The notes: generated from the letters alone by a model not told the origin. A stretch of DNA of 64,000 nt from Deinococcales bacterium (GCA_031414595.1 JANNVX010000014.1:1-64000), one strand, 5' to 3'; counted from the stretch's first letter, positions 10,215 through 59,162 are shown. Program-made: numbers and translations.

Positions 10215-10219
10215 CCTAT
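10215..10219 (+). repeat. Target-site duplication, left copy (CCTAT)
   Basis: CCTAT immediately precedes the TGT terminus; an identical copy follows the ACA terminus at 59039-59043. Confidence 0.93.
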
Positions 10220-10371
10220 TGTGAATTGCTCTTCACTTTGTCAGTAAAATGAACCATTTTTAGCTCATTTTGTCGTATTGAATGGCAGTGTTATCGTTTG
10301 CCACGTCATAGTTCAATTTTATTTTCGTTTACCGTGTCACTATTAAAATTGTGCTATCGTTTACCAAGTCA
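10220..10371 (+). repeat. tnsAB-proximal transposon end with TnsB-binding sites
   Basis: Terminus TGTGAATTGCTCTTCACTTTGTCAGTAA. 18-bp repeats TTATCGTTTGCCACGTCA (10291), TTTTCGTTTACCGTGTCA (10322), CTATCGTTTACCAAGTCA (10354), plus a degenerate copy near 10270. Confidence 0.9.
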
Positions 10372-10398
10372 ATACATCTAAATCTAAAAGGAGTAGAT

Positions 10399-12864
10399 AT
10401 GAGTAGTATATATGCAAATCCAAACGGTCTGACAAGTCGCAAGGGAAACGCCCTGCTGACTAGGTTTAAAACCACTTTACCATTTGAGAGTACCATCGAG
10501 GAACGGCTGATTCGCGTATTAGATGCCGACCTCGATATCGTTACGGTTAAACGTGCCGAAACTGTTAAGGTTTTTTCATTCGATGGATCTTCACATGAGT
10601 ACACTGCTGACTTTGAGGTTTCCTTAATCAATCAGCAGACTTATGTTCTCGAGTGTAAACCTCAAAACTTACTACACGATATACTCGTCGAGGATTTATC
10701 AAAATGGACTGCTCGAGCAATGCTTTTAAAGCAACAAGACAAACCTTTACACATCATTACTGATGATGATTTACCCGATTCGTTGATACAAAAATCCATT
10801 TCATATACACCATTTTTCAATACGTTTCCATATCCAGACGTTGAAAAAACAGCGATGGAATTTCTTCAAGAACGGGGCTATTTACCACTTTCAACCTTGC
10901 GCCTACATATTAGAAGTATTACTCAACGTTCTTTTCCAGAAATTGACTCCACGCTTTACGGTTTAATCGCTCGCAACGAGTTAATTGCAAATGAAAGCAA
11001 TTTTTCGCCAAATTGCTTAGTTGACCTACCTAATCGACATCTCGAGCCAACGCGCACGCCACTTGGCAAATTAGTGCAGGCTTTATTAATTGATTTACCA
11101 AAACCTACCCCGCGCCTAGAACCAAAAATGAATCCAGCTCTAATACTCGAGCAAAAGTTTTTAGCGACAGGGCGTGGGCAAAAGGCGTTAGAATTATTTT
11201 CCGTTTACAATAATCCGAATGTGCCAATCACAAAACAATTGGCAAAAGAGTTGACACAGAAAATCGGTGTCAATGCCCGAACTCTTTTTCGATTTCGACT
11301 TTCCCTTATCGAAGCAGGCGCACCAAATATCATTTTTACTGAACTGGTTCCGTTTTTGACAGGTGCCACACCAATACGCCCAAAACGTCAGGTGGAAGAT
11401 AAAGTCGCAACGATTATCGAGGAGTTCTGTTTAAAAAACTACTTTGTGCCAGTTGGTTCACCCACAAACCATCGAGCCAGTACGATGGCAGAATTGCATG
11501 AAATGATCAGAAAAGCCTGCCTTCAAAAAGAGCTATCACCACCTGCCTACACAACAGTCAAACGTTTTGTGGAAAAAATCATCAAACGAGATCCAATCAA
11601 GGCAACAAAGGCTCGTGATGGACAAGAAAAAGCCGATTCACTTGAGGCACGACAAGGCAAATTGATTGTGCTGCGGTACGGAGAAGTAATCGCCGTGGAT
11701 TGCTCTCCGTGCGATGTTTTTTTCCAAAAATCTAAAGCCGAACTGCATTTCAAAATCCATAGTCGAGGCAAAAACCAACGAAAAGAGAATGCAACTCGCG
11801 GCAATTTTGTGACTGTAGCAGATATAGCCACTGGTCAGGTTCTCCGTTCAGTCATTTTTGAAAGTGGCATCGGTGGTGCGGAAATCTTGGAAGTTTTACG
11901 TGATGTTTTTCTGCGTGATCAAAAGCTCTTTTCGCAAAACGATATTGTCAGTATTCCACAAGGATTTGGTCTACCTCAACGAATTCGTTTAGATAGCGGT
12001 TCAGAATTTACCAACAAACAAGTGGCTCGAGTTTTAGCACATTTAGGGATAGAGCGTGTAACACGCAATAGCTACACCAAACACTATGGTGGTAGAGAAG
12101 AACGAATTATTGGAATCCTCAGTCACAGTCATCATGTATTGGTAGGTACAACCATGAACACCATTGAAAAGCGCGGTGTTTATCAGGCACAGGCAAATGC
12201 TGTTTTAGATTTTGCAGACTTAAACCGATTTCACCAAAAAAACGTGGAACGTTATAATAATTTGCACGCACCACTGCACGAATACACCCGTCATCAACAC
12301 GCTCAACATTTGGTAGACAATGGTGTAACTGCATGGCGAATTCTTAGCCAATCACAACTTGACTATGTGACCAACCGAATGCACCCTGAAGAAGATCGCT
12401 TGACCATTCAAAAAGGAATCTCAATGTTTGGGCTTAAATACCAATCAGATGCGCTTAGACCACTCATTATTCGCCGTGCGAAATTGAATATTAGCTACAA
12501 CCCTGATGACATCTGTGTTGTTAATGCCATACATCCCGACACTGGAGAACGAATACCACTCACAGCAGAATTACCCGAAGGTTTTGAGCCACCAATTAGC
12601 AAAAAACTCTGGTATGAATATAGGCATCGGGTTAGAAAAGCGGCGCGTCAAGCTCAGGATGCAGTCGAGACACCTCAAGAAATTGTAGCAGATGTAATGG
12701 CGAAGAAAACGGAGCGAACTATTGAACAAAAAAAGAGTAAGTCAAGACATAGAAGTGTACAAACATCGCCTTCTCAAAGTAGGAAAATCGTTGAGACTGG
12801 CGCACGCACCATCCAATCGGCTGTTATTGAATTTTTAGACAATCCAGTCGAAATTGAAGAATGA
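10399..12864 (+). CDS. tnsAB: TnsA-TnsB fusion transposase
   Basis: N-terminal TnsA-like nuclease (FESTIE, YTADFEV, LECKP). DDE core AVDCS / RLDSGSEF / GREERIIG. Mu-type C-terminus GISMFGLKY...YNPDDI. AGGAG RBS before ATG 10399. Confidence 0.88.
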   Translation: MSSIYANPNGLTSRKGNALLTRFKTTLPFESTIEERLIRVLDADLDIVTVKRAETVKVFSFDGSSHEYTADFEVSLINQQTYVLECKPQNLLHDILVEDLSKWTARAMLLKQQDKPLHIITDDDLPDSLIQKSISYTPFFNTFPYPDVEKTAMEFLQERGYLPLSTLRLHIRSITQRSFPEIDSTLYGLIARNELIANESNFSPNCLVDLPNRHLEPTRTPLGKLVQALLIDLPKPTPRLEPKMNPALILEQKFLATGRGQKALELFSVYNNPNVPITKQLAKELTQKIGVNARTLFRFRLSLIEAGAPNIIFTELVPFLTGATPIRPKRQVEDKVATIIEEFCLKNYFVPVGSPTNHRASTMAELHEMIRKACLQKELSPPAYTTVKRFVEKIIKRDPIKATKARDGQEKADSLEARQGKLIVLRYGEVIAVDCSPCDVFFQKSKAELHFKIHSRGKNQRKENATRGNFVTVADIATGQVLRSVIFESGIGGAEILEVLRDVFLRDQKLFSQNDIVSIPQGFGLPQRIRLDSGSEFTNKQVARVLAHLGIERVTRNSYTKHYGGREERIIGILSHSHHVLVGTTMNTIEKRGVYQAQANAVLDFADLNRFHQKNVERYNNLHAPLHEYTRHQHAQHLVDNGVTAWRILSQSQLDYVTNRMHPEEDRLTIQKGISMFGLKYQSDALRPLIIRRAKLNISYNPDDICVVNAIHPDTGERIPLTAELPEGFEPPISKKLWYEYRHRVRKAARQAQDAVETPQEIVADVMAKKTERTIEQKKSKSRHRSVQTSPSQSRKIVETGARTIQSAVIEFLDNPVEIEE

Positions 12865-12892
12865 TCAAGTGGTCTCTGTAAAGGAGATGATT

Positions 12893-13681
12893 ATGACAAA
12901 CCAACGACATACCTACCTTAACAATCGTGAACGCCTTTGGCATCCAGAGACTTCTCGAGAAAATTTATTGAGTGAACTAGATGCAATGATTAGTGACCCA
13001 CCACGTCACAGAACCGTGAGTATAGCAATTCCAGGTGATGCAAATGATGGCAAAACACAAATCATTTCACAGTTTCTGAAACGACACCCGCCAACCAATG
13101 AAGGAGACTACACAAAAATACCTGCTATTGCAGTTGAAATGTCAGATATTTCTACAGTTCAACAGCTCAGTCGGCGTTTACTCGAGGAGTCAAAAGACCC
13201 CGACCCAACTTCCGGAACACATGACGAACGAATGGCACGTTTCGTAAAACGAGCCAAAAAAATCGGACTCAGAATGGTCTTCCTTGATGAGTTTCACGAT
13301 TGTGCTGACACAAGCGGCAAAGGTAAACCATTCCTGCGTCTCCTTAAAAGCCTGCTGTCAAAGCGTATTTTTGTAGTCCCCGTTGGAATGATCGAAGTAC
13401 GCGAAGTATTGAAAAAGGATCCGCAACTTGCTAATCGATTTAACTTTCATAAAGGGCAATTGGCAAAAGTTACAAATTTGGAAGTTATTAAAACCTTAAC
13501 GGAAAAAATAGCTGGCAATCCCATTGTAATCACTGATGCCGGATTGGAGTATATCCTTGATAAAACAAAGGGTACACTTGGAGATATATTAGATTTTGTC
13601 GAACACACCCTACGAAAATATAACAACCTCGAGCTAACTAGCTTGGAAAATCAGTATTTATTGATGCCATTCTCAAAGTAA
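12893..13681 (+). CDS. tnsC: TnsC/TniB AAA+ ATPase
   Basis: Walker A GDANDGKT and Walker B VFLDEFH; follows the transposase; AAGGAG RBS before ATG 12893. Confidence 0.9.
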   Translation: MTNQRHTYLNNRERLWHPETSRENLLSELDAMISDPPRHRTVSIAIPGDANDGKTQIISQFLKRHPPTNEGDYTKIPAIAVEMSDISTVQQLSRRLLEESKDPDPTSGTHDERMARFVKRAKKIGLRMVFLDEFHDCADTSGKGKPFLRLLKSLLSKRIFVVPVGMIEVREVLKKDPQLANRFNFHKGQLAKVTNLEVIKTLTEKIAGNPIVITDAGLEYILDKTKGTLGDILDFVEHTLRKYNNLELTSLENQYLLMPFSK

Positions 13682-13862
13682 CAAATCGAACATGATACCT
13701 TTCAGCTCATAGTTTGAGAGGATTCAGATTACTCAAATCTTCTCAAACCTGCTCCATGAGTTCTTAAATTTCAAAGCACTTTTTTTCCATTAATAAACAC
13801 CATTCAGCGAAACGGCTAAAGGGCTTTTAGTGTGATTCTTAAAAACGAGTTAAACTTCTGAT

Positions 13863-15649: not shown

Positions 15650-18064
15650 CTAATTTAAGTATGGTCGCAGCTTTTTCAGTATTTGGCTCTCCGGATACTC
15701 TCTTAAAGTAATTTCCAACAACTTTTTGTAAGTTACCTTTGATCCAGATCGTATTTCTCGAAACGCCGACCTCCATTGTTCGGCATCAGTGTTGCCATGT
15801 GGCAAATCAGCGACGCGACCACCAGCCCGCTCCCAGAATTCCTTTAAGCGGTCAGGCACACTATCAATACACCACTGTTCAAAAACCTCAGTACGGTCAA
15901 TTTCTTCAACTGCATTGAGTGATCGGCTAAAAAACTGGAAAAATTTTTGGAGCGAAGTCAAAAGTTTAAAAATTGACTCAACAAATGTTGTAACAATGGG
16001 ACGAGAATCAGGTCTAAACTCATCACATAATCTCTGAGCTAAAGCCCATCGATTGCGTCTAACCATAACTCGACCAGTCGCTTTAAGAATACTTTCAGAC
16101 TTGCCTAGATTGCCACTTTGAGATATTGCGGCTTTTACAATTTTTTCGATATGGGCATCTTGGAGTAAGTCTGGCAGTGCCGTGACAACTCGAGTTGCAC
16201 CATCTAAGTTAAATTTTCCATCACTTACAAGTTCCAAAATTGTCTCGGACAGTTCTGTTTCAATGAATTCCCCAGATTCCCCTTGTCTCAGCCAATCATT
16301 GGCTGTGGTCATCAAGAAGCTTTTACGTGCAAGACTAGGCAACTTTTTCCAGACACTTGAACGATTGGGAAATGCCAATAAACTCGCATCAGATGTTGTT
16401 CCTAAACGCTCAAGAAGTTGGAGTGGAACTTGTAAATCATTCAACAATTCAGAAACTAGCAATGGCAATAAGCGCTTTGCTTGTCCACCCCAAGGATCTT
16501 TGGCTTTTAAACCGGCGATTGTCCAGATTTGGATGCCTGCCTCAGTAACCTCAAGAGCTTCCCATCCTGAATGGTCATTATTGAGATATGTTCCTGCGTG
16601 TTCCCAGACATCTCTTCGATCCATATTTTGTGCAGCACAAATCAATTCTCGAGTCCCCGCAATTAGCTGATATGCACGAACAATTCTTTCAGAAGCATCC
16701 AAAGGCGCATTTTGCAATAAATCCTGAAAACATTGTTCTGTTGGTGCTTTTTGCAAATGAATTGATGCAAACAACAGCCACCACTGACGATATTTCAAAT
16801 TCTCAATAAAAACATTGGGGAGTGTCTGATGGGCAATGGATGCAGCCAATTGTGTTTCCCAAGAATCCGCAACCAATTCAAAAAATGTAGTGCTGTTTTT
16901 GCTGCAAAGTCCAGCCCAAATAGCCTCGATAAGTTGAGGATTCCCTGACCGAAGTGCAGATTTTATTGCTGTTTGGATTGCGTAAATCCACCAAGATTGT
17001 GCCGTTCCACAGCGCGTGAACAAGTCAGACATGGATTGTACTTCATCTTGGATCAATTTAGAAGCTCGAGACTGAATGATATTTTGCAATGCAAATTGCT
17101 CAGTTAAGGGTATCAAACCGGCTACCCGTTTTAAGTCATCAATGGAAGCACCTACGAGTTGTTTTTGTAGAAATTCCCATAACTTGTACTGCTGCTCACA
17201 GACAAATTCAGCCTGAATTTCCAAGGTTATCAAATTTTCTAAAGCAGCAGCAGCGACATTAACGCTCCCTCTGCCTTCTTCAAGTTGCTTTAGAAGTAGA
17301 AACAGTATGCTCAGGGTATTCAAGGCATCCCATTTCCAAGCAGTCAAAGACTCGAGCCAAGGCAGAATAACAGGATTGCGATCCCCAGCCAGATGACGTA
17401 GTAATAAATCCTCTGCTTTAGGTACGATAAGTGAGTTTAGATTGTGCCAACGCGACTTTAGGCTATCTGGCACCAAGACTAATTTGGGGGTAAACCCAGA
17501 ATTGTGTAGTGCATCAGGATCAAAAATAGTACGAAATGAAAATTCCTCACGACCTTTTTGGGGTAAGGCATCCCAAAAATTCCAAATCTGAGGGATCAAA
17601 TTCAAATCCACCAAAATCACAGGGTTATTTTGTGATTGCACTATTGTGTATGAAAAAGCATAATCAGGCTCATCAACTTGCTCAGGGTAAGTATTTATAC
17701 CTGTTTTTGAAATGATTGTTGGGGACAGTGGTGTTGTCCAATTTTCATCTTCCAGAATCACCCATAAATCTCGAAGTTGTACTTGTGCTAAGTATTCAAT
17801 TTCTATTAAGACAGCGCGAGTGATGACACTTCCACGACGTGGAGCTTTATCATCTCGAGCCACTCGAAGTATCGAAAAAAAGGAAGTGTTTTTAACTTTG
17901 CTTCCAATGTAAAAAGGATCCCATTCAGGTATTTCAAAGCTGGCCCTCGGATAGTCTGAAATAGTCTCAAGCCACGCGATGGGTTTTGTGGTGGTTGAAC
18001 CAAGAAGAGCATGACCTACAGTGGGATGAATACCAAACAATGCTCGTTCAATTGGGAGGTTCAT
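15650..18064 (-). CDS. GAP1-N1-like protein with C-terminal EAD1 domain (GTPase-based conflict system)
   Basis: N-terminus ERALFG...GHALL...DKAPRRGSVITRAVLI; C-terminus FWERAGG.VADL...EQW...LLEITLREYP; operon context. Confidence 0.72.
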   Translation of the reverse strand: MNLPIERALFGIHPTVGHALLGSTTTKPIAWLETISDYPRASFEIPEWDPFYIGSKVKNTSFFSILRVARDDKAPRRGSVITRAVLIEIEYLAQVQLRDLWVILEDENWTTPLSPTIISKTGINTYPEQVDEPDYAFSYTIVQSQNNPVILVDLNLIPQIWNFWDALPQKGREEFSFRTIFDPDALHNSGFTPKLVLVPDSLKSRWHNLNSLIVPKAEDLLLRHLAGDRNPVILPWLESLTAWKWDALNTLSILFLLLKQLEEGRGSVNVAAAALENLITLEIQAEFVCEQQYKLWEFLQKQLVGASIDDLKRVAGLIPLTEQFALQNIIQSRASKLIQDEVQSMSDLFTRCGTAQSWWIYAIQTAIKSALRSGNPQLIEAIWAGLCSKNSTTFFELVADSWETQLAASIAHQTLPNVFIENLKYRQWWLLFASIHLQKAPTEQCFQDLLQNAPLDASERIVRAYQLIAGTRELICAAQNMDRRDVWEHAGTYLNNDHSGWEALEVTEAGIQIWTIAGLKAKDPWGGQAKRLLPLLVSELLNDLQVPLQLLERLGTTSDASLLAFPNRSSVWKKLPSLARKSFLMTTANDWLRQGESGEFIETELSETILELVSDGKFNLDGATRVVTALPDLLQDAHIEKIVKAAISQSGNLGKSESILKATGRVMVRRNRWALAQRLCDEFRPDSRPIVTTFVESIFKLLTSLQKFFQFFSRSLNAVEEIDRTEVFEQWCIDSVPDRLKEFWERAGGRVADLPHGNTDAEQWRSAFREIRSGSKVTYKKLLEITLREYPESQILKKLRPYLN

Positions 18065-18912
18065 GTCTCTCCAAACAACCAGTCAATTGGCAGTGTCAAA
18101 TCGCTTTTTTGCTCTCCGTTTGGCAGCACAAGAAAACCGGATTTCTCTGCGCCAGCTTCTCGAAAAGTATGTTGGAAATTTGGATCATCAAGTGAACCCC
18201 CTTGCGACGATAAACCATACACACGCATTGCACTATCTGCCCAGACTGTACGGATAAACTGCTCGAGCAATGGGCAGAGTTGCTTGAAATAGAATTCTGG
18301 AGTCAATTCAGTATTGACTTCATCAAAACAGGACAACATAATTGCCAATCGAGGTGAGGTTGTTCCTATTGGAGCAAATCCAGCACGTACCCACCACCAC
18401 ATTTGCAGTAGTTCAATCATTTCAATCTGTGACGATAATCTGCGTAAATTCACATTATCTGGTGCGTTGATTTCCGCTTGAGGCTTTGGGTTTTTCATCT
18501 CTTTTGCCACAGGAGGAGCATCCATTGTGGTCGTGGGTTCATTTATGGCACTTGGACGAATAAAAAGCATCCAAGCCGAGGACTCTTGAAATCCAGAAAT
18601 CCAGTTTCCTTCAATAGCTCGGTCACGAATCATTCGAGTTAATTGCTCACCATCATAATCAGGCAGTACAAGATCTATGGATTGACCATGACGATTCAAC
18701 AAAGGCAGTGTCATAGAATCATATGCACTGGTGGTACGTGGCGGTTTTTCACCGCGTTCATAGGCTTCAAGCGCCATTTGGAATAACTTTAAGCTTTCAG
18801 GCTGTCCCCTGAATTTTAGGCTGCTTTTTTGTGCAAGAATTCGCCCATAGACTTGGGTGCCATAACCTGTTTTCCCTGACTGTGAATATCCCATCAGCAA
18901 TAATTGACTCAT
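18061..18912 (-). CDS. TRAFAC-clade double-GTPase family protein
   Basis: GYSQSGKT, PPRT, DYDGE and LSCFDE motifs. Confidence 0.78.
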   Translation of the reverse strand: MSQLLLMGYSQSGKTGYGTQVYGRILAQKSSLKFRGQPESLKLFQMALEAYERGEKPPRTTSAYDSMTLPLLNRHGQSIDLVLPDYDGEQLTRMIRDRAIEGNWISGFQESSAWMLFIRPSAINEPTTTMDAPPVAKEMKNPKPQAEINAPDNVNLRRLSSQIEMIELLQMWWWVRAGFAPIGTTSPRLAIMLSCFDEVNTELTPEFYFKQLCPLLEQFIRTVWADSAMRVYGLSSQGGSLDDPNFQHTFREAGAEKSGFLVLPNGEQKSDLTLPIDWLFGET

Positions 18913-19887
18913 TTATGTACCTCGAGTGAACCAACGAGATAAGTTCTCTGCTCGGGAATTAGCAGCTTCACTAACATCGTTAAAAGCGGTGACAGCAGGC
19001 TTAACTTGACTGATTAAAACTTCGGAAAACCACTCGAGAACATCTGTGCCTTGTGCCTCGTGACCATTCGTTGCAATTGTGTGGAATGATTTCGCATCTG
19101 GCAATCCCTCTTCAAGTGCCGTTTTTACTGCTTGCAATTTTGGGTTAGAAGTAGTCTCGTCTGCCTTAGTCCAGATAATTTGTGTGGGACGAAGTTTCAA
19201 TTCGGTAAAACGATTGAGTAGAGTCAGGGTTTCACGAGCAGCGGTATTTCGTTCTAACGGATCTGATAATCTTCGCCCATCCACCACAAAACACAAAGAA
19301 TCTGCGTGTCTTAATATCCAAGCAGCCCCTTCAGCAGAAGGTTGATTGGGTTCTATATTCCATGCTCGAAACCATTCGCCAGGTACATCGGTGATAAGAA
19401 CGTCTTGCCAATTTGCTTCTCGAGTTGCAAATCTCAGATGAAGCAGTCCTGGTTCACGACCTTCACCAGTTGTTCTGGGTGGATATGTGGGTTTTTCATC
19501 GCCTTTCCATGCTAAAGAACGACTTATCAAATCCCACCCATACAAGGTAAACGACCCAGCAAATGCCCATTGGGGTATTTCCCTGCCCTTGGTCAAAAGT
19601 AAGTACAAAGAAGCCAGTAAACTGGTTTTTCCTGCATCTGCAAAACCCACTAACCCAAGTAAAATGGGTCGCTGTTGTCCAGCAATGAATTGGGCTGCCA
19701 ATGGTGTGAACGAATTCCCACTCCATGCTGGACGCAATTTCTCTGTATCAATGCTTAGATCACTCGAGTCATGCGAAGATGTGCTCTCTCCTTGGAAATG
19801 CTCGCATGCTTCAGGGGACTCGCCTGTATGAAAGCAACCCGTTTTTGGGGCATTACAAGTCTCAACTGAACAAACAATACGACTCAT
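18913..19887 (-). CDS. TRAFAC-clade double-GTPase family protein with N-terminal Cys cluster
   Basis: GFADAGKTS, PPRT, DVPGEWF and WTKAD motifs; ATGA overlap with the upstream gene. Confidence 0.8.
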   Translation of the reverse strand: MSRIVCSVETCNAPKTGCFHTGESPEACEHFQGESTSSHDSSDLSIDTEKLRPAWSGNSFTPLAAQFIAGQQRPILLGLVGFADAGKTSLLASLYLLLTKGREIPQWAFAGSFTLYGWDLISRSLAWKGDEKPTYPPRTTGEGREPGLLHLRFATREANWQDVLITDVPGEWFRAWNIEPNQPSAEGAAWILRHADSLCFVVDGRRLSDPLERNTAARETLTLLNRFTELKLRPTQIIWTKADETTSNPKLQAVKTALEEGLPDAKSFHTIATNGHEAQGTDVLEWFSEVLISQVKPAVTAFNDVSEAANSRAENLSRWFTRGT

Positions 19888-21107
19888 ACTTGAGTTCCCA
19901 ACGACAAAGTACGCAAGTACCAAACAGCAAATTCCATCGGAGAAAGCGGCAGTTTTCCTGAAAATCCAAAGTGCTGACCAATCACCTTATCCGAAATACT
20001 GTTCTTTACACCCGAGAGTTCTGCTAAATGCCTTGGCAGTACCCTAAGCGGAGTTGAGGCATTAAGTATCACTTGCCCGAGAACTTGCTCGCCCATTATC
20101 TCCTTAATACCTTCTACGAGGGTACTTGATTCTTCGGCTTTTTCACCAAAAGCGGTAAAAATAGCTTCCTCGAGAACAGCAATCGCTTCTGGGGAAACCG
20201 GGTATGAAATCATTTCATGCAAATCAACAGCCATAATCGCTGCTGCTGACCACACTGAGAGCGTCCTATAACGGCGTTTAAGGTTGGGCGAAAATCGAGT
20301 TTGAAGCCACCACAATACATTGAGCTTTTCTTTGATATTTTCGTTTGAAGTCTTGATAAAAGAAGCATCAATCACTGGAATCTTTATGGATTGAAGCTGT
20401 TCATCAAGTTCGGTTGCGATGCTTTGAAAAGAAGATTGGATAGTTTCTGCAATTCCAGATGCAGTTGCTTTTGCCCACTGTGGAAAGATGATATTTTGAC
20501 CGTAACTTTGATTATTTGAAATCGGATTGCCGTTCTGAAATGCCGCAGCAAAACCTGTATCCAACGTATCAGTTTTGTCAGATAAGTCTATTTCGGGCAT
20601 TTTGGAAAATGTAATTTGGCTCGTTGGACTTTCAGAAGTCAATTCACAGGCTTTTTTATAAGCACATTGAAATTCTAGCAATAATTTTTCCAGTACACCA
20701 ATTTCTTTAGGGTTGCCAAGAAATTTAAGTGGATTAATGACTGCCAAATACAAAATTACCTTATTAGAATCTGAAACCCGACGCAAAGCATATAAAAGCA
20801 TATAGCGAAAAAGTGCCACAGGATCGTTTTTATGCTGACTGCTGAGAGACCTCCATTTTGACAATAAACACTCTTTCACCAATCTAATAGGCTCAGCGCT
20901 GGCATTCACTTTAGAATCTATTGCTGCCAATCCACTAGAAACCAGTAAACTCACATCGGACTCGAGTTGCTCGAGAATATCTAAAGCTGCTTGGTTCAGA
21001 TATTCAAGTTTTTCGTCATCTAAAGTGTAGTCTGCGGTAATCACTTGCAACAATTCGTGATCTAAGGTATCCATTTGTGCATCTGTGATTTCTTTTGCTT
21101 TAGACAT
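19884..21107 (-). CDS. GTPase-associated system all-helical protein (GASH-like)
   Basis: All-helical 407 aa with LNVLWWLQTRFSP..RRYR motif; lies upstream of the two GTPases. Confidence 0.65.
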   Translation of the reverse strand: MSKAKEITDAQMDTLDHELLQVITADYTLDDEKLEYLNQAALDILEQLESDVSLLVSSGLAAIDSKVNASAEPIRLVKECLLSKWRSLSSQHKNDPVALFRYMLLYALRRVSDSNKVILYLAVINPLKFLGNPKEIGVLEKLLLEFQCAYKKACELTSESPTSQITFSKMPEIDLSDKTDTLDTGFAAAFQNGNPISNNQSYGQNIIFPQWAKATASGIAETIQSSFQSIATELDEQLQSIKIPVIDASFIKTSNENIKEKLNVLWWLQTRFSPNLKRRYRTLSVWSAAAIMAVDLHEMISYPVSPEAIAVLEEAIFTAFGEKAEESSTLVEGIKEIMGEQVLGQVILNASTPLRVLPRHLAELSGVKNSISDKVIGQHFGFSGKLPLSPMEFAVWYLRTLSLGTQV

Positions 21108-21156
21108 ATTAGCGGATATTTTATAACCAAATCCAAAAAATCACAAATCATCAATT

Positions 21157-41453: not shown

Positions 41454-41466
41454 GTTGGAGTGAATT

Positions 41467-43557: not shown

Positions 43558-43576
43558 GTGCAACCACGGAGGTTAT

Positions 43577-45249: not shown

Positions 45250-45257
45250 GGAATAAT

Positions 45258-51436: not shown

Positions 51437-51903
51437 GGTCTAGTCCTTACATTAAATGTAATCGTGTGAATCACGGTATCTTTTGTATCTCGAGGAAGTT
51501 CAGTAAGCTCTAATTGATGCTCGTTATTTAGGGTAAAAGCTATGGTGATTCGGCTTTTGGTTAAAGTCCATCCATCACTATTTACAGCACTTGATTCAAG
51601 AACTTGTAAAAAAGTGGTTAGAGCTTTCTCAAAGGTCGTCATAAATTGGGGGATTGGTGTTCCAAAATCATTAACAGTAAAACTTTGGCTATCCACTGAA
51701 AATTCAATGTGTACAAGTTCTTCCTTGGTGGTTACGCTGGTTGCAAGGTTTAGTTCGCTTGCTTTTCGGGTTTTGCTTGCTTTATCGAGATAGAACGCCC
51801 ATGTCACTTGGGTGATCTGAATTCTTGTGCCTAAAAGGTTATAGGTGTGCGCTATATTGAAGGTGCTTTGTACCGCACCAAGATAATCAATGGGCTGGTT
51901 CAT
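51433..51903 (-). CDS. Hypothetical protein
   Basis: ATGA-coupled within the operon. Confidence 0.55.
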   Translation of the reverse strand: MNQPIDYLGAVQSTFNIAHTYNLLGTRIQITQVTWAFYLDKASKTRKASELNLATSVTTKEELVHIEFSVDSQSFTVNDFGTPIPQFMTTFEKALTTFLQVLESSAVNSDGWTLTKSRITIAFTLNNEHQLELTELPRDTKDTVIHTITFNVRTRP

Positions 51904-52619
51904 TCTCGTGTCCCTAAGCCTAACTCGAGACCATCATCCAAAAGATGGTTTTCATGCTCGTTAGTTAAATTTTCCTCGAGAATAACTTTGCGTTTCATGG
52001 GTGGAATCCATTTCTTCCAATGCTCTGGGATTTCTAATCGCATTGGCTTGAGATTTTGAGCAATTAAGAAACCATGCTCGAGAACCCCAGTCATGTGTAG
52101 ATACCGAGCATCTTCGACCAAATTCAGTAAATCGAGGGTGGTTTTAGCACTGACCACAAATGGTTCTATTTTTTTGTTGTCTGGTGGGTAAACTCGCAGC
52201 AATACTAATTTCTCAGCTCGGTCTAAACGGAGGACTTTGCCAGCCGCACTCCAGAAGGTATCAGCACCATTCAAATCAACGGCATTCTCGAGGGGCATGA
52301 CTCGAGCCAAGGTGAGGTTGGCTAAGCGTTGGTCTTTGAAGGTCTTGCCGTACAACGTGGCTCTCCAAGTACCAGAGAGTTGGATTGAAGACTGTTCAGG
52401 GTGGGTGTTGCGCCACCTCGAGAAAACCCTTGGGTGAACTCGAGCGATGTAAGTACCATTTTTTGGATTGCCAAGTTGAATGGTGACTCGAGTGTTTTGC
52501 TGGTCATCTTGGATGGTGGCATTGGCTTGGATGAAGAAATGGTGGTTATAGTCGGTGTGAATACCTTTTGGCATTGGCTGTGGTGTGGTTACAAGAGTTT
52601 CAAAAACGTCATTTGACAT
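51900..52619 (-). CDS. Hypothetical protein, paralogue of 52652..53272
   Basis: Shared WSA.G...D...LV..RVYP...PF..SA...H..G.L...LEIP..W..W; GGAG RBS. Confidence 0.65.
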   Translation of the reverse strand: MSNDVFETLVTTPQPMPKGIHTDYNHHFFIQANATIQDDQQNTRVTIQLGNPKNGTYIARVHPRVFSRWRNTHPEQSSIQLSGTWRATLYGKTFKDQRLANLTLARVMPLENAVDLNGADTFWSAAGKVLRLDRAEKLVLLRVYPPDNKKIEPFVVSAKTTLDLLNLVEDARYLHMTGVLEHGFLIAQNLKPMRLEIPEHWKKWIPPMKRKVILEENLTNEHENHLLDDGLELGLGTRE

Positions 52620-52651
52620 GCTATCTCCTATTCACGGGTTTCTTATCGTCT

Positions 52652-53272
52652 TTAGTTGGCTTTCCAGTTGCGCCAACGATCAGGAATTTCTAAATCTTGA
52701 TTGGTTAATACTTCTGCAACAAGCTTTTTGCCACTTAAGTTCCCTATCAAATGGACAAACTCATTTTTTCTTGGCAACTCTTGTTCTACTTTCAAACTGG
52801 CTGAAATCAAAAATGGCGTGGCTCGAGCTTGCTCAGGGTAAACCCGAATCGTGACCAATCGGTGTATTGGGTCACTTTTGGTGATTTGTCCAATAGCACT
52901 CCATCGCGGCTGGTGGGAATCTTCTCGTTCTAACTCGAGGGGTTCAATACGATGTAGGTGAAGTGGTTCAAACAGCACACTATCGTTCAAAGTGCGGAAA
53001 TGAAGCGTACATAACCACCAACGATGACTTGCTGGGTTGAGCCTTAACACATCTGCACTGGCTTTAACCCGAAGCATGGTGCTATCGGAGAGTTGGATGT
53101 CCATATTGTTACCGCTCCCTGAATCGTAAATACAAGCCGCCACTCGCATAAAAGCATGGCATCCATCAGGAATAGGAAAATCAAAAGTGAGTTTTCGTGG
53201 GGTAGTGGTCAATGGTCTGCCTCGAGCTTGGATTTTGTGACTGGTCATAAGAAATGCCACCTCTGTACACAT
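52652..53272 (-). CDS. Hypothetical protein, paralogue of 51900..52619
   Basis: Same shared C-terminal motif set. Confidence 0.65.
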   Translation of the reverse strand: MCTEVAFLMTSHKIQARGRPLTTTPRKLTFDFPIPDGCHAFMRVAACIYDSGSGNNMDIQLSDSTMLRVKASADVLRLNPASHRWWLCTLHFRTLNDSVLFEPLHLHRIEPLELEREDSHQPRWSAIGQITKSDPIHRLVTIRVYPEQARATPFLISASLKVEQELPRKNEFVHLIGNLSGKKLVAEVLTNQDLEIPDRWRNWKAN

Positions 53273-53390
53273 CGGATCGTGTTTGTTACAAAAGGTGGTG
53301 GTGTTAAACGAGATTGATTGTCTTGAACTGCCAACATGAGTTGTAAGCTCAAGTGCTGACCCTAATTGCTTGGGGCATTTACATTATAAC

Positions 53391-53406
53391 ACCGTATATA
53401 TACGGT
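53391..53406. promoter_or_regulatory. Perfect 16-bp palindrome, candidate operator
   Basis: ACCGTATATATACGGT, 37 bp upstream of the XRE start codon. Confidence 0.55.
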
Positions 53407-53443
53407 TCTGCTAGTCAAAGTCAACCTGTAGCCTTCGCAAACG

Positions 53444-53671
53444 ATGCCTCGCTTTGCGGTAGACCCAGAGATAATACGTGTTCGCATTCGTCAATTACGA
53501 CTCGAACAGGGTTTAACCCAAGATGAAGTAGCAGCCCGAAGTGGAATCAACGAAAAGCACTATCAAGACCTCGAGACGGGAAGGAAAGCCTTTAATCCTA
53601 CTCTCGAGACCCTCAATGCTTTTGCTTTGACCTTTGAAGTGGAACTGGCTGTCCTTCTAAAATCGGAGTAA
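53444..53671 (+). CDS. XRE-family HTH regulator upstream of the tniQ-cas operon
   Basis: IRQLRLEQGLTQDEVAARSGI..KHYQDLETG..FNPTL. Confidence 0.88.
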   Translation: MPRFAVDPEIIRVRIRQLRLEQGLTQDEVAARSGINEKHYQDLETGRKAFNPTLETLNAFALTFEVELAVLLKSE

Positions 53672-53838: not shown

Positions 53839-54798
53839 GTGTTTCATATGATTGAAACTGCCAAAAACCCACACTGGGCAATCCACCCTCAAATCCAAAA
53901 TGGTGAGTTGTTTGAATCTTGGATTGTGCGGTTGAGTGCCGAAAATGGCTTTCGCCTGCGCGAAGTGATACAGCAATTAGAACTCAAAAATGTCTTTTGT
54001 TCTAAAAACAATGTTGAGATCAAAGCCGTAAGAAAATTGTCGGATGCAACTGGGATACTTCAATATCGAATCCTCGAATCCCATCTTGGGTGGCTTCAAA
54101 ATCACTCTGATCTTGCCTATGCAAAAACATTTACCCTTTGGGGGCGTAGCCCATCGGACACGATACAGCATTTTAAGTTTTGCCCAGACTGTTTTGCTAA
54201 TCAAGACAAGCCACACATACTGCTTGACTGGGCATTTGAAATCACTCAGTTCTGCACGGTACATCAACGACCTTTACTCGAGCGTTGTCCAAAATGCCGC
54301 GAGCCACTTCAGTTTAGTTTGCTTTTCAACAAAACAATACAACCCGAAATCTGCTCTAATTGCAGCACAAAAATGAAAATCCATGCTCGGAAACACAGCA
54401 TTGATTTCAAATTTGGTCTCGAGCTACAAAGACAAATCTTGAGCCTCCGAAAACATGACCAAGTATCACCAAAACAATCACGAATTATCCCAGCAAAAAC
54501 GTTTTTATCAATTGTTGAGCGGATATTTTATCGCTTTACCAATTTACCCAACCAGCAAACCTTCTCTAAATTGACTGATCTCTCAGTTATGTTGCTGGAT
54601 GATCGTTTTTCGCAAGCGTACCGAAGAATAAACGCCCTGACCATTTGTGGCTGGCTTTTAGCCGACCCAATAGTACGAATTATTACTCTGCGCCAATTCA
54701 CGCAAAAGTATGTTGAATACTCGACGGCTATTCAAATTATTTCTGTTCTGAATTATGCACAAGCGACATTGCAACCACGTAATGGAACTTACCAATGA
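53839..54798 (+). CDS. tniQ: TniQ target selector
   Basis: HPQIQNGELFESWIVRLSAENG; zinc motifs FCPDC, W...CTVH..PLLERCPKC, CSNC; ATGA overlap with cas5. Confidence 0.92.
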   Translation: MFHMIETAKNPHWAIHPQIQNGELFESWIVRLSAENGFRLREVIQQLELKNVFCSKNNVEIKAVRKLSDATGILQYRILESHLGWLQNHSDLAYAKTFTLWGRSPSDTIQHFKFCPDCFANQDKPHILLDWAFEITQFCTVHQRPLLERCPKCREPLQFSLLFNKTIQPEICSNCSTKMKIHARKHSIDFKFGLELQRQILSLRKHDQVSPKQSRIIPAKTFLSIVERIFYRFTNLPNQQTFSKLTDLSVMLLDDRFSQAYRRINALTICGWLLADPIVRIITLRQFTQKYVEYSTAIQIISVLNYAQATLQPRNGTYQ

Positions 54799-55529
54799 GC
54801 TTATTTGCACTCGAGGTTTGGGGCGATTACGCCTGTTTCACACGTCCTGAAACAAAAGTTGAAAGACTTAGTTACCCTGTGATGACTCCAAAAATTGCTC
54901 GAGCAATTTTTGGAGCGATCTACACCCAGTTTTCTGGGGGTGAAACACCTCACACAACTTTTTTCTGGCAAGTCAGGCGAATCGAAATCCTCAATCCAAT
55001 TGTGTTTATTTCGTTCTCACACAATGAAGTCAAAGGGAGAGCAAGCACTTACAACATTTTGCGCTCAGTTCATCAGCCCGACGCACTTCAACCGCTCATG
55101 GCAGATGGCAATGATGATTCCAGCAAAGAGACTGGGCGCACCCAACGCCAATCAATGATTTTGCGCGAGGTGCGTTATCGGATATTCGCTGAACCAGTGC
55201 TGTACAATCCAAACCAAAGCAATCTGAAGCAAATCACCCACGAATTTGCTCGACGTGCAGCCAAAGGCAAGTGTTTCCATCAGCCTTTTTTGGGATGCCG
55301 TGAATACATAGCATTTTTCCAGCCAGTTCCGCCCACATTTGGCGTTGGCGCACCGATTTTTGAAGATATTGGTTGGATGATCTACGATACGTTTGATCTA
55401 TCACAGCCAAGCTCAATCACCATTACACCAAGCATTAGTATCTTCAGGGCGACGATTCAAAACGGTGTTCTCGAGATACCGCCGTATGATAGCAACGAGG
55501 TACGCAAACTAGGACTGGGAGTGATTTGA
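54795..55529 (+). CDS. cas5c: Type I-C Cas5 (Cas5c/Cas5d)
   Basis: WGDYACFTRPETKVERLSYPVMTP, RTQR..ILREVRY and GKCFHQPFLGCRE motifs. Confidence 0.95.
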   Translation: MSLFALEVWGDYACFTRPETKVERLSYPVMTPKIARAIFGAIYTQFSGGETPHTTFFWQVRRIEILNPIVFISFSHNEVKGRASTYNILRSVHQPDALQPLMADGNDDSSKETGRTQRQSMILREVRYRIFAEPVLYNPNQSNLKQITHEFARRAAKGKCFHQPFLGCREYIAFFQPVPPTFGVGAPIFEDIGWMIYDTFDLSQPSSITITPSISIFRATIQNGVLEIPPYDSNEVRKLGLGVI

Positions 55530-57343
55530 TGCTCGAGGCTCTGATCGAATATGCTCACCGAAAACAATTGGTTCTCGAGCCTGGTTTTGCTGGCAGGCGT
55601 ATTCATTGGTTAATAAATCTTGACTCTAAAGGACAGGTTCAATCCGTTTCTTTTGCAGATGAATCCAAGCGACGAGCGAAGTTGTTTCCATGCTGTCCAG
55701 ACCTGCAACAGCCCCAACTGATCAGGCTGCCACATGTACTTAAACAGCTTGGAATACTATCAACACGAGCAGCCCACTTTTTAATGGATTCATGTTGTCG
55801 TGTGGTGCTTTATCCAGATAACGATCAGTTGGAACAACATAAGACTTTTCTAAACCTAATCCAACTAGCAAGCCAAGAAGTTAGGATATTACGACCAGTT
55901 GCAAAAATGCTTTCAAAGCAAAAGGAAATTGGTCGAGTACATCAAGCCCTCATTCAATTGAAAGCCACAAAAACCGACAAAGTATCGTTTTCGGTGGATG
56001 GAGTGGTCATACTTGAGGATACAACGTGGCATGATTGGTGGCGAAGATTTTATATAACCACAAGCTCAAAGCAAAATTCAGATCGTATGATCAGTCTGGT
56101 TTCAGGAGAAGTTATTTCGCCTGCCAGAACACATCCAGCGCTTAAATCCTTGGTCGAAAAAAAAGTAACTTTTGGAGCGGCAGTAGTGGCTGTGCATAAA
56201 ACTGCCTTTACCTCATATGGGCTAAAACAAGCCGAACACGCCGCCATGTCAGGAGCATCTGCCGCTGCCTATCATGCAGCTCTGGAAGATTTATTGAGAC
56301 AAACTAGGATGGTTCATGGTACGAAAGCGGTGTATTGGTACAACCAAGAAATTCCACTACAATCCGACCCACTGGCGCTGATGTTGCGCGATGAACGCAT
56401 AGATAACATCAACTACCGAAAACAGCTTGAGGATATTCTTTCACAAGCTCGAAAAGATGATTCTCGAGATGTTGCTTGCCATATTGCTGTGTTGCGTGAA
56501 AATGAAAATCGGGTCAGGATTTCATTGTACAAAACGCTGCGATTGAGTGAAGTGGCGGCTGGACTTATTAAATGGCTCGAGGATACTTCAATTGATGGTT
56601 TGGCAGGTACTGGTTTCGTAGTTGATCTACCCAGCGAATTTGCTGGTATGTTTCGTCAACGAGTTGGGGGAAAAAGCGATAAGGCACTTGACTTTCAACC
56701 ACTACTGATTGTGTTGTACCAGCAGATGCTCAACCCCACTCTACCCATTGCGATGGCTCTGGTTGATTATTCACTTAAATCGGTCATTACCAGCTTTGTA
56801 AAAGGCAAATTTCAGGCAGCATTTGCAACCAAGGCAGATTTACCATTGCGACAAAATTTGGTGATTTACATGGGTATTTTGAAAGCATTTTGCCGTCACT
56901 CAGGTGATCGAGACCTATTGCAACAACTGAATCCTAATCATCCTAATTCACACTATCAAACAGGTCGGCTCACTGCGATGCTCGAGCGTATTGATGGGTT
57001 GAATAATCCTCCACATGTTGAACTCAAAAACCAAAGGTTGTTTTTGCAAATTATGACGACACCGAACAATATCCTGCAAGAAAAAATGGCTTCCAGTCAA
57101 CGAAAGCTCAAGCGACTTGAAAGAACTCGACGATGGTTCAGCCTATACTTACAAAAAGAAATGAATACGATTTGGGAGAATCTTGATGCTAAGGTTCGGA
57201 GTAATAGCTCAGTAAAACGCCAATGCTTATTCCTATTGGGTTACTTTCAACAAACCATTTCTCAATTGATTGAACCTGTGCAAAACGATGATTTTTACAA
57301 TTTGGAGTCGAGAACCTTTAAGGAGCAACATGAAACCGATTGA
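55526..57343 (+). CDS. cas8c: Type I-C large subunit Cas8c (Csd1), divergent
   Basis: MLEALIEYA...EPGF...W.I.LD..G, LVSGE...ARTHP, AFTSYGLKQ, YQTGRL.A.LE, Q..FLLGYFQQ. Confidence 0.88.
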   Translation: MMLEALIEYAHRKQLVLEPGFAGRRIHWLINLDSKGQVQSVSFADESKRRAKLFPCCPDLQQPQLIRLPHVLKQLGILSTRAAHFLMDSCCRVVLYPDNDQLEQHKTFLNLIQLASQEVRILRPVAKMLSKQKEIGRVHQALIQLKATKTDKVSFSVDGVVILEDTTWHDWWRRFYITTSSKQNSDRMISLVSGEVISPARTHPALKSLVEKKVTFGAAVVAVHKTAFTSYGLKQAEHAAMSGASAAAYHAALEDLLRQTRMVHGTKAVYWYNQEIPLQSDPLALMLRDERIDNINYRKQLEDILSQARKDDSRDVACHIAVLRENENRVRISLYKTLRLSEVAAGLIKWLEDTSIDGLAGTGFVVDLPSEFAGMFRQRVGGKSDKALDFQPLLIVLYQQMLNPTLPIAMALVDYSLKSVITSFVKGKFQAAFATKADLPLRQNLVIYMGILKAFCRHSGDRDLLQQLNPNHPNSHYQTGRLTAMLERIDGLNNPPHVELKNQRLFLQIMTTPNNILQEKMASSQRKLKRLERTRRWFSLYLQKEMNTIWENLDAKVRSNSSVKRQCLFLLGYFQQTISQLIEPVQNDDFYNLESRTFKEQHETD

Positions 57344-58295
57344 AAATCGCTACGAATTTCTACTCATTTTTGATTGCGAAAATGGCAATCCCAATGGTGA
57401 TCCCGACGCAGAAAACCTTCCAAGAATAGACTCCCAAGACGGTCATGGATTGGTCTCTCCAGAATCAATCAAACGAAAGATTCGTGACCGTATTGCCCTG
57501 AATGGTATAGAAATCTTTATCCAACACCAAACCAATCTCAATCGTGCGATTTTTGCGGCGCGTGAACAGAGTAATACCTTAAAAGACAAATCCACCAAGA
57601 TAACATTACAAAACGCCGCTGCAATTATGTGTAAACGATTTTATGATGTTCGGACTTTCGGTGGGGTAATGACTACAGGTGTCAATTCAGGTCAATTGAC
57701 TGGACCTGTGCAGATTACATTAGCTCGCAGTGTTGACCCAGTTCATATCATGGATTGGGGAATTACTAGAGTGGCTGTTGCCGAAACTGTCCAAGGAGCA
57801 AAAACCCTGGCTGACTACGAACAATGGGAATCCGAACAAAATGCTTCAGATTTAAGAACTATGGGACGGAAAAGCCTGATTCCATATGGATTATTCGTAG
57901 CCAAAGGCTGCATCAGTGCGTTTGATGCGGAAAGAACAGGGTTTTCAGAAGCTGACCTCGAATTGCTCTGCGAAAGCATGTTAGACATGTTTGAACACAG
58001 TCGCAGTGCCAGTCGTGGTTTGATGACCACAAGGCGCTTGGTAATTTTTAAGCATATAGGATCATCCAAAGACCCCAAAGTGCGCCTCAAACAAGCTAAA
58101 CTAGGGCGTATTCCAGCACAAAATTTGCTCGAGTTAGGCAGAATTGTTCGCATTTCTCGCGTCAATAAAGATGCTTTTCCTCGAGCCTATCACGATTACG
58201 ACGTGGTTGTGGATACCAGTGCATTACCAGAAACCATTGAAGTGCTGGATTTAGATTTGTGGGATGAAGAAAAGTTTCGCTCGGCTTGGGTTTAA
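57330..58295 (+). CDS. cas7c: Type I-C Cas7 (Csd2)
   Basis: NRYEF..FDCENGNPNGDPDAENLPRID, KRKIRD, FYDVRTFG.VM, GPVQ, TMGRK..IPYGL, TGFSE.DL; AAGGAG RBS. Confidence 0.96.
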   Translation: MKPIENRYEFLLIFDCENGNPNGDPDAENLPRIDSQDGHGLVSPESIKRKIRDRIALNGIEIFIQHQTNLNRAIFAAREQSNTLKDKSTKITLQNAAAIMCKRFYDVRTFGGVMTTGVNSGQLTGPVQITLARSVDPVHIMDWGITRVAVAETVQGAKTLADYEQWESEQNASDLRTMGRKSLIPYGLFVAKGCISAFDAERTGFSEADLELLCESMLDMFEHSRSASRGLMTTRRLVIFKHIGSSKDPKVRLKQAKLGRIPAQNLLELGRIVRISRVNKDAFPRAYHDYDVVVDTSALPETIEVLDLDLWDEEKFRSAWV

Positions 58296-58467: not shown

Positions 58468-58645
58468 GTCTCAATGGCATCTAGCCGTCGAGACGCTTGA
58501 AACCAAACCCGACGAAAGGATGCACATTACGATAATCCGTCTCATGGGCATCTAGCCGTCGAGACACTTGAAACATTGCCATCTAAAGTCCAATCACATA
58601 CATTGGCATGTCTCTATAGCTTTTAGACATTGCGATGCTCGAGAT
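58468..58645 (+). CRISPR. Mini CRISPR array: 2 intact plus 1 degenerate 36-bp repeats, two 35-bp spacers
   Basis: R1 58468-58503 GTCTCAATGGCATCTAGCCGTCGAGACGCTTGAAAC; R2 58539-58574; R3 58610-58645 (24/36 identical to R1). Hairpin GTCTC..GAGAC and TTGAAAC 3' end. Confidence 0.9.
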
Positions 58646-58750: not shown

Positions 58751-58808
58751 GCCTCAACGGTACTTAGCCATCGAGACGCTTGAAACTAACCAATTGACCT
58801 ATATGCCC
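58751..58808 (+). CRISPR. Delocalised atypical repeat plus tRNA-targeting homing spacer
   Basis: Repeat GCCTCAACGGTACTTAGCCATCGAGACGCTTGAAAC (58751-58786). Spacer TAACCAATTGACCTATATGCCC matches the minus strand of 59086-59107 at 18/22. Confidence 0.88.
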
Positions 58809-58892
58809 GAATTTATTTTTTCCAAAGCCTCTTGTTCCAGATATGCGGAGGTCAAAGCCAAAAGGTTTGCTTGAAAGGAGTATTGGGATCAC

Positions 58893-59038
58893 TGACACGG
58901 TAAACGATAAGAAATGATATAGAATTTAACTCGAGTTCGTTAAACACAATGTTTATTTAGGAAAGTTCAATCAGTGCCACGGTAAACGATATTGACATTC
59001 ATAAAAATAATTACTGACAAAGTAAACGATAATTCACA
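58893..59038 (-). repeat. tRNA-proximal transposon end with TnsB-binding sites
   Basis: TGACACGGTAAACGATAA (58893), TGCCACGGTAAACGATAT (58975), degenerate copy (58993), TGACAAAGTAAACGATAA (59015), ending AATTCACA. Inverted relative to the sites at the other end. Confidence 0.92.
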
Positions 59039-59043
59039 CCTAT
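59039..59043 (+). repeat. Target-site duplication, right copy (CCTAT)
   Basis: Identical to 10215-10219. Confidence 0.93.
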
Positions 59044-59072
59044 TTGCCAAATGTGCATTTTACGGTTAATCT
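59044..59072 (+). promoter_or_regulatory. Candidate tRNA promoter
   Basis: TTGCCA-N17-TAATCT, 13 bp upstream of the tRNA. Confidence 0.6.
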
Positions 59073-59085
59073 AGGGGTCGTGCGA

Positions 59086-59162
59086 GGGTCTATAGCTCAA
59101 TCGGTTAGAGCGGAGGTCTCATAAACCTTAGGTTCGGGGTTCAAGTCCCCGTGGACCCACCA
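59086..59162 (+). tRNA. tRNA with CAT anticodon (Ile2 or elongator Met)
   Basis: Acceptor stem GGGTCTA/TGGACCC, anticodon arm GAGGT-CTCATAA-ACCTT, GGTTCAAGTCC T-arm, encoded CCA. G1-C72 pairing argues against initiator fMet. Confidence 0.95.

Follow-up and report, generated by a model that had tools for sequence, protein, structure and literature searches.

A small family of putative RNA-guided type I-C CRISPR-associated Tn7-like transposons with naturally reprogrammed homing guides, found in a Deinococcales bacterium and its relatives

The stretch of DNA analyzed here, referred to as the window, comprises positions 1-64000 of contig C14 of a 4.49-Mb Deinococcales bacterium genome (G000, 94% complete). 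It contains a 48,819-bp element (10220-59038) that sits between the xth gene (9337-10101) and a tRNA gene with a CAT anticodon (59086-59162, + strand). From sequence comparisons we conclude with high confidence that this element is a type I-C CRISPR-associated Tn7-like transposon (CAST) that homes by RNA guidance. It appears to belong, with its relatives, to a small and well-supported family of type I-C CASTs that are RNA-guided and whose homing guides have been reprogrammed in nature. An initial annotation had proposed an intact type I-C CAST, and this reading is supported by four tniQ-cas elements and a set of clpP-linked ends, each with its own flank-matching spacer in a fixed geometry.

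The evidence for homing begins near the cas-side end of the element. A detached atypical repeat (58751-58786, + strand), 30/36 identical to the first repeat of the CRISPR array, is followed by a shortened homing spacer of 22 nt (58787-58808, + strand) that has no repeat 3' to it. This spacer matches the first 22 nt of the adjacent tRNA gene, read toward the element (59086-59107, - strand), with mismatches at positions 6, 12, 18 and 19, so that 18 of 19 positions other than every sixth agree. The protospacer-adjacent motif (PAM) is 5'-CTC-3' (59108-59110, - strand), and 64 bp separate protospacer position 1 from the target-site duplication. The tRNA gene is the sole match of the homing spacer in the 4.49-Mb genome, and its match score was reached by 0 of 2000 shuffles. 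The homing guide and target site that the initial annotation had considered visible are thus confirmed.

A TniQ profile placed members of the same clade in 4 of 364 genomes of the phylum (G000, G004, G010 and G014), which belong to one family and three genera; 22 further genomes of the phylum had distant TniQs only. The clade is discrete: among 1.84 billion representatives, 12 clusters scored at or above 182 bits and the next scored 130 or lower. In G004, G010 and G014 the tniQ-cas5-cas8-cas7 genes, a four-repeat array and one transposon end lie on one contig, and tnsAB and the other end lie on another; the loss of cas genes from these split elements was checked in the parts that were fetched. 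The 5-bp duplications match between the two contigs in all three relatives. In all four tniQ-cas elements a detached repeat-spacer unit matches the flank of its own insertion, and each matches a different site. The G014 guide, in an inverted unit, matches the T-arm of a tRNA-Leu gene (16/19 non-sixth positions, PAM TTC, 61 bp); the G010 guide matches the 3' end of an ABC permease gene (15/19, PAM TTC, 62 bp); and the G004 guide, in an inverted unit 5' of tniQ, matches the D-arm of a tRNA-Arg gene (16/19, PAM CTC, 60 bp). As for the window guide, none of 2000 shuffles reached any of these scores. The G004 target was predicted from the geometry before its guide was located, and a further tRNA-Arg end, in G003, is likewise fitted by the G004 spacer, at a distance of 61 bp. 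In addition, clpP-linked ends in two genomes (G000 and G004) have one common spacer, which matches at 14-15 of 19 positions at a distance of 65 bp, a score reached by 3-4 of 2000 shuffles.

Every target is oriented toward its element and lies 60-65 bp away, and the four main PAMs are YTC. When four independent best hits were simulated, they fell on the right strand and within 5 nt of one another in 9 of 2,000,000 draws. Cognate pairs agreed at 14-18 of the 19 non-sixth positions and non-cognate pairs at 9-13. The four genomes are kin; their target sequences are unrelated. Mismatches occurred at 12 of 15 sixth positions and at 15 of 95 positions elsewhere, with one clpP pair counted. Judged from these alignments, the every-sixth pattern, as expected for unconstrained bases, is the signature of a Cascade R-loop; in the CAST McCAST, mismatches at sixth positions cost nothing (PMC9881144). 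The homing spacer matches the attachment site at a fixed distance and in a fixed orientation, as in a CAST.

The element itself is bounded by TGT at 10220 and by ACA ending at 59038, and the sequence CCTAT abuts it on both sides (10215-10219 and 59039-59043). The 28-bp inverted repeats of the initial annotation are present at the ends (10220-10247 and 59011-59038), but at 82% complementarity they are similar rather than perfectly matching. The tnsAB-side end (10220-10375) has five TnsB-site-like motifs, at 26, 70, 91, 122 and 154 bp, and the target-proximal cas-side end (58891-59038) has three, at 26, 66 and 148 bp; the spacing is nearly the same in three relatives, two of which have an extra site at 48. 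By these ends, site arrays and 5-bp duplication the element belongs with the Tn7-like transposons. The empty site whose existence had been suggested was found in G005, the genome of a sister species in the same genus, in which xth is 96% identical and is joined to the tRNA gene over one CCTAT: by blastn, window positions 9900-10220 and 59039-59700 are contiguous on one G005 contig. Seventeen xth loci were inspected in all; the remaining 16 had no tRNA inside their 1.5-kb flanks, and in one of them, that of G004, these flanks held another element end. With its ends, the single CCTAT of G005 and its tnsAB, tnsC and tniQ genes, the element is a complete Tn7-like transposon, as had been claimed. 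Its boundary at 59038 is a loose end in an independent sequencing run, and its GC content is 0.433 versus 0.473 in the flanks. The host tRNA gene is left intact; ARAGORN calls it Met, with Ile2 possible, and it was the sole match in an Rfam scan of the window. A scan of promoters and terminators gave results at chance level, and a pattern search with the end motif was overall at control level; matches in G008 and G018 that had been candidate element ends proved on closer look to be due to chance. In G004 (C411, L193:1-59) a second tnsAB-type end lies just 5' of xth and suggests another insertion at the homologous site.

At the tnsAB side, a tnsAB fusion gene (10399-12864, + strand, 821 aa) and tnsC (12854-13681, + strand, 275 aa) lie together, and tniQ and the cas genes are at the other end; gene calls and profile searches agree with the initial annotation on this layout. 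The TnsAB matches in Pfam (TnsA-N, rve and Mu-transposase-C) are weak and all under curated cut-offs, and against PDB sequences there was no match at E<=1. Residues E34, E35, D71, K87, D434, D532, E567 and E568 are invariant in 9/9 aligned homologues. We take E34/E35, D71 and E85-x-K87 to be the catalytic motif of a TnsA-like nuclease, and D434, D532 and E567/E568 presumably are the DDE-like catalytic residues of TnsB. TnsC, an AAA+ ATPase with Walker A (GKT at 66) and Walker B (DEFH at 145) motifs, matches TniB (Pfam, E=2.5e-31), and its top PDB match is VchTnsC. The tniQ gene (53839-54798, + strand), preceded by an Xre/HTH_3 regulator gene (53444-53671, + strand), encodes a protein of 316-319 aa with two C4/C3H zinc-binding motifs (Pfam TniQ, E=4.5e-16). 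Its AlphaFold model (pLDDT 88.5) matches TniQ/TnsD chains of I-B, V-K, I-F and Tn7 systems (Z 9-14); the closest folds, 8fcu (Z 14.2), 9bw1 (13.8) and 8rdu (13.4), are tied and include both CAST and TnsD TniQs. Consistent with the earlier claim of one TniQ and no long TnsD, a hidden Markov model (HMM) of the TniQ clade found a single TniQ among the element's open reading frames (ORFs) of at least 60 aa, and a Pfam TniQ search of the genome found one on the window contig. The protein set of TnsB transposase, TnsC ATPase and TniQ selector is therefore that of a Tn7-like element, with the TnsB profile matches below curated cut-offs.

The cas genes form an operon headed by tniQ, in which tniQ, cas5c, cas8c and cas7c overlap one another. 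The tniQ stop and cas5c start share 54795-54798, the ATGA overlap noted in the initial annotation. The genes cas5c (54795-55529; TIGR01876, 114 bits, cut-off 85) and cas7c (57330-58295; TIGR02589, 277 bits, cut-off 182), both on the + strand, exceed the NCBIfam I-C cut-offs; between them cas8c (55529-57343, + strand) is divergent, at 152 bits versus a cut-off of 218.65. All three products exceed Pfam cut-offs (Cas5d, Csd1 and Cas7, respectively), and the Cas8c profile matches PDB chains of I-C Cas8 and Cas11. A tblastn search with the host's own proteins found no cas3, cas4, cas1 or cas2 in the element, as had been stated, and the interference and adaptation genes are thus missing from the window element in the manner of a CAST. 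A six-gene system had been described. The six ORFs, the ends, target and guide hold, but cas8c probably also encodes, internally, a seventh product, Cas11c (predicted cas11c, 56918-57343, + strand), whose putative start is an in-frame TTG accompanied by a strong Shine-Dalgarno-like match. The mini CRISPR array (58468-58645, + strand) has two good 36-nt repeats (58468 and 58539), two 35-nt spacers (58504 and 58575) and a degenerate third repeat (58610), with the atypical repeat detached from it; the array repeats fold with z-scores of -3.0 to -3.8. A Cas5c-Cas8c-Cas7c operon without cas6, hairpin repeats ending in GAAAC and TTC-type PAMs (TTC twice and CTC twice; the clpP guide is out of register) all point to type I-C. 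TTC is the I-C PAM, and a pyrimidine at -3 is tolerated by some I-C Cascades, according to part of 10.1101/2022.06.15.496202. The host carries a separate, complete I-C defence locus (cas3-5-8-7-4-1-2); the Cas7 encoded there is only 39% identical to that of the element, and the host and element repeats have a basal stem and 3' tail in common. None of 59 host spacers matches the element. The array spacers had no match in phages or plasmids. Against viral contigs one of them had a 17-nt match without extension and spacer 2 had none, and neither matched the host genome. Among the cas5c/cas8c differences, of which 40 of 285 were counted, 22/36 changed codons were synonymous and 27/40 changes fell at third positions.

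Element anatomy, product geometry and guide-target covariation are the parts of a mechanism that are directly observed, and around them we propose the following. By analogy with known I-C biology, Cas5c would cut the detached repeat to give a short CRISPR RNA (crRNA) with a guide of about 22 nt. A Cas3-less Cascade of Cas5c, Cas8c and Cas7c, perhaps with Cas11c, would then bind a YTC PAM and open a short R-loop in a host gene that is conserved, a step to which the sequences point strongly. The single TniQ presumably links Cascade to TnsC, and TnsC would recruit TnsAB; the coupling of TniQ to Cascade is seen here at the genetic level only, in the overlap of tniQ and cas5c. TnsAB is expected to act by cut-and-paste, and the products lie 60-65 bp from the PAM with a 5-bp duplication and the cas end by the target. 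The target adjoins the end whose TnsB sites are the more closely spaced, in agreement with a trend stated in PMC11406308. The distance corresponds to about 40 bp past the 22-nt match. With 35-nt spacers, McCAST insertions fall 75 +/- 6 bp from the PAM (PMC9881144), and in I-F3c a 20-nt spacer matches about 64 bp from the end; a shortened Cascade or R-loop therefore fits the 60-65 bp seen here with 22-nt guides. The full-length array spacers probably serve a second, mobile-element pathway and are probably renewed in trans by the host Cas1-Cas2-Cas4, and the brevity and mismatches of the homing guide probably keep it from triggering the host Cas3.

Several observations weigh against this reading. 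The G010 guide has mismatches at seed positions 3-5, and the clpP guide has mismatches at positions 1-4 and non-YTC PAMs in register. The tnsC gene of G004 is frameshifted, and the copies on G000 C17 and in G003 are relic-like. The fold of the window homing repeat is weak (-4.9 kcal/mol, z -0.28), unlike those of the G010 and G014 homing repeats (z about -2.8). In McCAST, activity fell greatly when 12 nt were removed from a spacer (PMC9881144). The proposed second pathway is unsupported here because no target was found for array spacers 1 and 2. The canonical Cas11 ATG is lost in all four elements and present in 5/5 related defence loci, and two relatives have only a weak ATC in its place. We did not adopt the view that Cas11 is lost from the window copy, where the TTG and its Shine-Dalgarno-like match remain.

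Some of these points bear on the possibility that the lineage is a genuine CAST lineage of which the window copy is no longer active, its homing repeat having decayed or its Cas11 having been lost. This possibility, which is compatible with RNA-guided homing by the family, we hold to be a real, if minor, one. The weak fold of the homing repeat, the degenerate third repeat, a Cas8c under the NCBIfam cut-off and the existence of broken relatives speak for it; set against them are six full-length ORFs, conserved catalytic motifs and intact ends. A close relative, G005, moreover lacks the element, and other close relatives have new spacers and other flanks.

It seems very improbable, on the other hand, that TniQ alone picks the site in the manner of TnsD and that Cascade and the self-matching spacers do something else, such as repression of the target gene or exclusion of rivals. 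Sister Cas-less elements do rely on TniQ/TnsD proteins that are long (435-542 aa), homing is protein-based in I-B and I-D CASTs (PMC10293859), and the window TniQ retains a 120-aa C-terminal helical domain. Nonetheless, one TniQ clade would need to recognize five unrelated sequences, and no spacer matches a flank other than its own, with distance and strand constant throughout, an arrangement as tight as that met in 9 of 2,000,000 random draws of four hits. Least credible of all, in our view, is a reading of the cas genes as defence cargo, passive or decayed, with the self-matching spacer an accident of acquisition, even though Tn7-like elements often carry defence genes (PMC8649781) and the window cargo is rich in conflict systems. 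Passive cargo is already largely refuted, because different detached spacers each match their own flank at a fixed distance and orientation, a geometry that accidents would not produce five times. The tniQ-cas5-cas8-cas7 unit has also been kept without cas3 in three genera, and the element Cas7s form a fast-evolving clade of their own, with a support of 99 in the Shimodaira-Hasegawa-like approximate likelihood ratio test (SH-aLRT). RNA-guided homing thus remains the reading that we prefer.

The lineage appears to be of local origin. Named Cas7 homologues came mostly from Deinococcus, Meiothermus, Truepera and metagenome-assembled genomes of Deinococcota. In a quick Cas7 tree of 72 rows, built without formal rooting from 62 of the 120 matches listed in an unfinished search, the four elements belonged to a long-branch clade of 14 rows, supported at SH-aLRT 99, whose neighbours were defence Cas7s of Deinococcota; cas3 flanks all five loci that were labelled defence. 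In a quick TnsAB tree of 19 rows, again without formal rooting and limited to pieces of at least 500 aa (which leaves out that of G010), three elements and three context-less proteins grouped at 98 among Cas-less TnsAB-TnsC-long-TniQ elements. The simplest reading of these sequences is that a local I-C Cascade was captured by a local TnsAB element within the Deinococcota, and the Cas-less elements are likely the ancestral stock. Taking the evidence together, we consider it likely that a Deinococcota TnsAB transposon independently captured a I-C Cascade, and that the result is the first I-C CAST whose guides and targets can be seen. This CAST would home via a shortened Cascade on a crRNA of about 22 nt lacking a 3' repeat and would have been retargeted in nature to five host sites or more. 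Guide length would then fix how far from the PAM it inserts, about 62 bp with homing guides and more with the 35-nt array guides, and six genes would suffice, without Cas6 or TnsD.

Close relatives of the element, mostly 90-99% alike, were present in contigs from three runs of a second study; run X1, which may be the source of the window DNA, was not counted. These relatives have extra spacers on the leader side, a loose end exactly at 59038, a different flank there before the same tRNA gene and other sequence past it, differences that fit ongoing spacer gain and movement between hosts. Scans of viral, metagenome and genome sequences with single proteins or a TniQ alignment found no loci beyond the three known relatives. 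In a metagenome scan with Cas8, a TniQ, TnsAB or TnsC match accompanied 0 of the best 80 of 109 loci, and most of the 14 loci checked for cas3 or cas1 were defence loci. For both the CAST-clade Cas7 P0003 and the CAST-clade TnsAB P0275 the longest contig is one of 23,129 bp, which hints that a compact, complete element lies on a single contig. A tRNA-Arg beside a sister element in G047 was set aside because the ARAGORN call is doubtful and the vicinity has no element end.

Other insertions were seen in the course of this work. On G000 C17 (43424-44542, L012) there is a 1,119-bp relic with TGG/CCA ends, a CAGTT duplication and a truncated tnsA; it has two repeats and a detached spacer matching the start of clpP, and the same spacer is found at the clpP end on G004 C259. 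Insertions at the CCA end of tRNA-Arg(CCT) genes (L061:19-443 on G004 C136 and L241:8149-8530 on G003 C79) bring along, about 300-350 bp in from the end, another tRNA-Arg gene of slightly different sequence, which perhaps compensates for the disturbed host gene. In the same G004 locus (L061:848-1700) an insertion sequence (IS)-like transposase gene (262 aa), which we take to be IS5-like, lies between cas7 and the array. On G014 C421 (L030:2400-2560) an older cas-type end abuts a tnsAB end and shares its last bases with the new duplication, as in a tandem insertion.

The cargo of the window element (13863-53272, about 39 kb) was annotated with Pfam and NCBIfam. It includes RNase H, a TPR protein, a serine hydrolase of beta-lactamase fold, an Xre antitoxin and an IS fragment. 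A GTPase-centred conflict system (GAP1-N1, DO-GTPase1/2, GASH and EAD1) adjoins a SIR2-EAD1 gene at 15650-22326. At 27187-45959, a 3646-aa RHS-HINT polymorphic-toxin-like ORF is accompanied by an SMI1/KNR4 gene and duplicated immunity-like ORFs (a 300-nt repeat at 38946 and 39887), followed by subtilase and secretin genes. Two paralogous ORFs divergent from an HTH gene (51900-53671) make up a module also found in the G014 element and in Cas-less Tn7-like loci. Elsewhere in the genome, on C101 (L009:1-5153), a host CRISPR array precedes cas6, an HTH gene, tnsC and a tniQ of 410 aa; no tnsB is listed within 9 kb, and the locus is possibly a transposase-less TnsC-TniQ module or a remnant.

Type I-C CASTs as a category are not new, because they were named in a computational metagenomic survey (bioRxiv 10.1101/2021.08.16.456562) and are listed as a CAST variety in a 2025 classification (PMC12669027); the initial annotation had likewise placed earlier mentions of I-C Cascades beside Tn7 genes in computational surveys. 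Putative I-C CASTs are said to lack arrays (PMC11300857), and the parts of PMC10293859 and PMC11406308 drawn on here do not mention I-C. No experimental I-C CAST and no Deinococcota CAST was found among the matches listed in searches of the open full text of PMC and bioRxiv, a body of literature outside which most subscription papers lie. Within the open literature the lineage, its architecture and its homing mode appear to be new in print, and its origin is probably new. The survey, the only one found to report them, left open whether I-C Cascades guide transposition and how a site is chosen without an array; with complete parts lists and natural guide-target pairs, the present family makes that question directly testable. 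It is also one more case, apparently independent, in which Tn7-like elements have co-opted CRISPR, and it brings shortened homing guides of the V-K style into a class 1 system. As a candidate tool it is compact, with six genes, crRNA processing by Cas5c built in and a natural payload of 49 kb, and its natural TnsAB fusion is predicted to give simple cut-and-paste inserts.

The I-C CASTs of the survey share with the window element Tn7-like genes and Cas5, Cas7 and Cas8c without Cas3, Cas1 or Cas2. As described in part of that survey, their TniQ lies beside TnsABC, their TnsB and TnsC are near those of Tn7, and an array, a self-targeting spacer and an attachment site were not found. In the window element, in contrast, TnsA and TnsB are fused, tniQ is the first gene of a cas operon 40 kb from them, and none of array, homing guide, ends and targets is missing from view; by layout it falls outside the earlier lineage, a separation that rests on description rather than on a tree. 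The Cas-less Deinococcales TnsAB-TnsC-long-TniQ elements have the same tnsAB-tnsC layout and TnsAB proteins 33-47% identical, but a long TniQ directly follows tnsC, often with a second, and no cas5, cas7 or cas8 was present in the stretches fetched. I-B2 (PmcCAST) and I-D (McCAST, CyCAST) elements resemble the window element in their natural TnsAB fusion, tRNA sites and TniQ fold (8fcu), and in a Cas11 encoded inside the large subunit, which for the window element is a prediction. For homing by protein alone they carry a long TnsD as a second such protein, and McCAST inserts about 75 bp from the PAM (PMC9881144), whereas the window element has one TniQ, apparently homes by RNA at 60-65 bp and has a TnsAB with no PDB match at E<=1.

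I-F3 CASTs also have tns and tniQ-cas operons at opposite ends, one TniQ and an atypical repeat with a homing spacer, and their VchTnsC is the top PDB match noted above; in I-F3c a 20-nt spacer matches about 64 bp from the end (10.1101/2021.08.16.456562). The window element differs in its I-C effector, in processing by Cas5c without cas6, in a trinucleotide YTC PAM and in the absence of a repeat after the homing spacer. Its target is by the cas end, whereas the I-F3c match lies upstream of tnsA; we do not regard this reversed orientation as unprecedented, as either side occurs according to PMC11406308. V-K CASTs (ShCAST), finally, share a shortened, detached homing crRNA, a single TniQ, a short TniB-like TnsC and tRNA attachment sites that change between close relatives (the last from PMC11406308). 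Compared with these, the window element has a multi-subunit I-C Cascade rather than Cas12k and a TnsA-like nuclease domain, and no trans-activating crRNA is expected.

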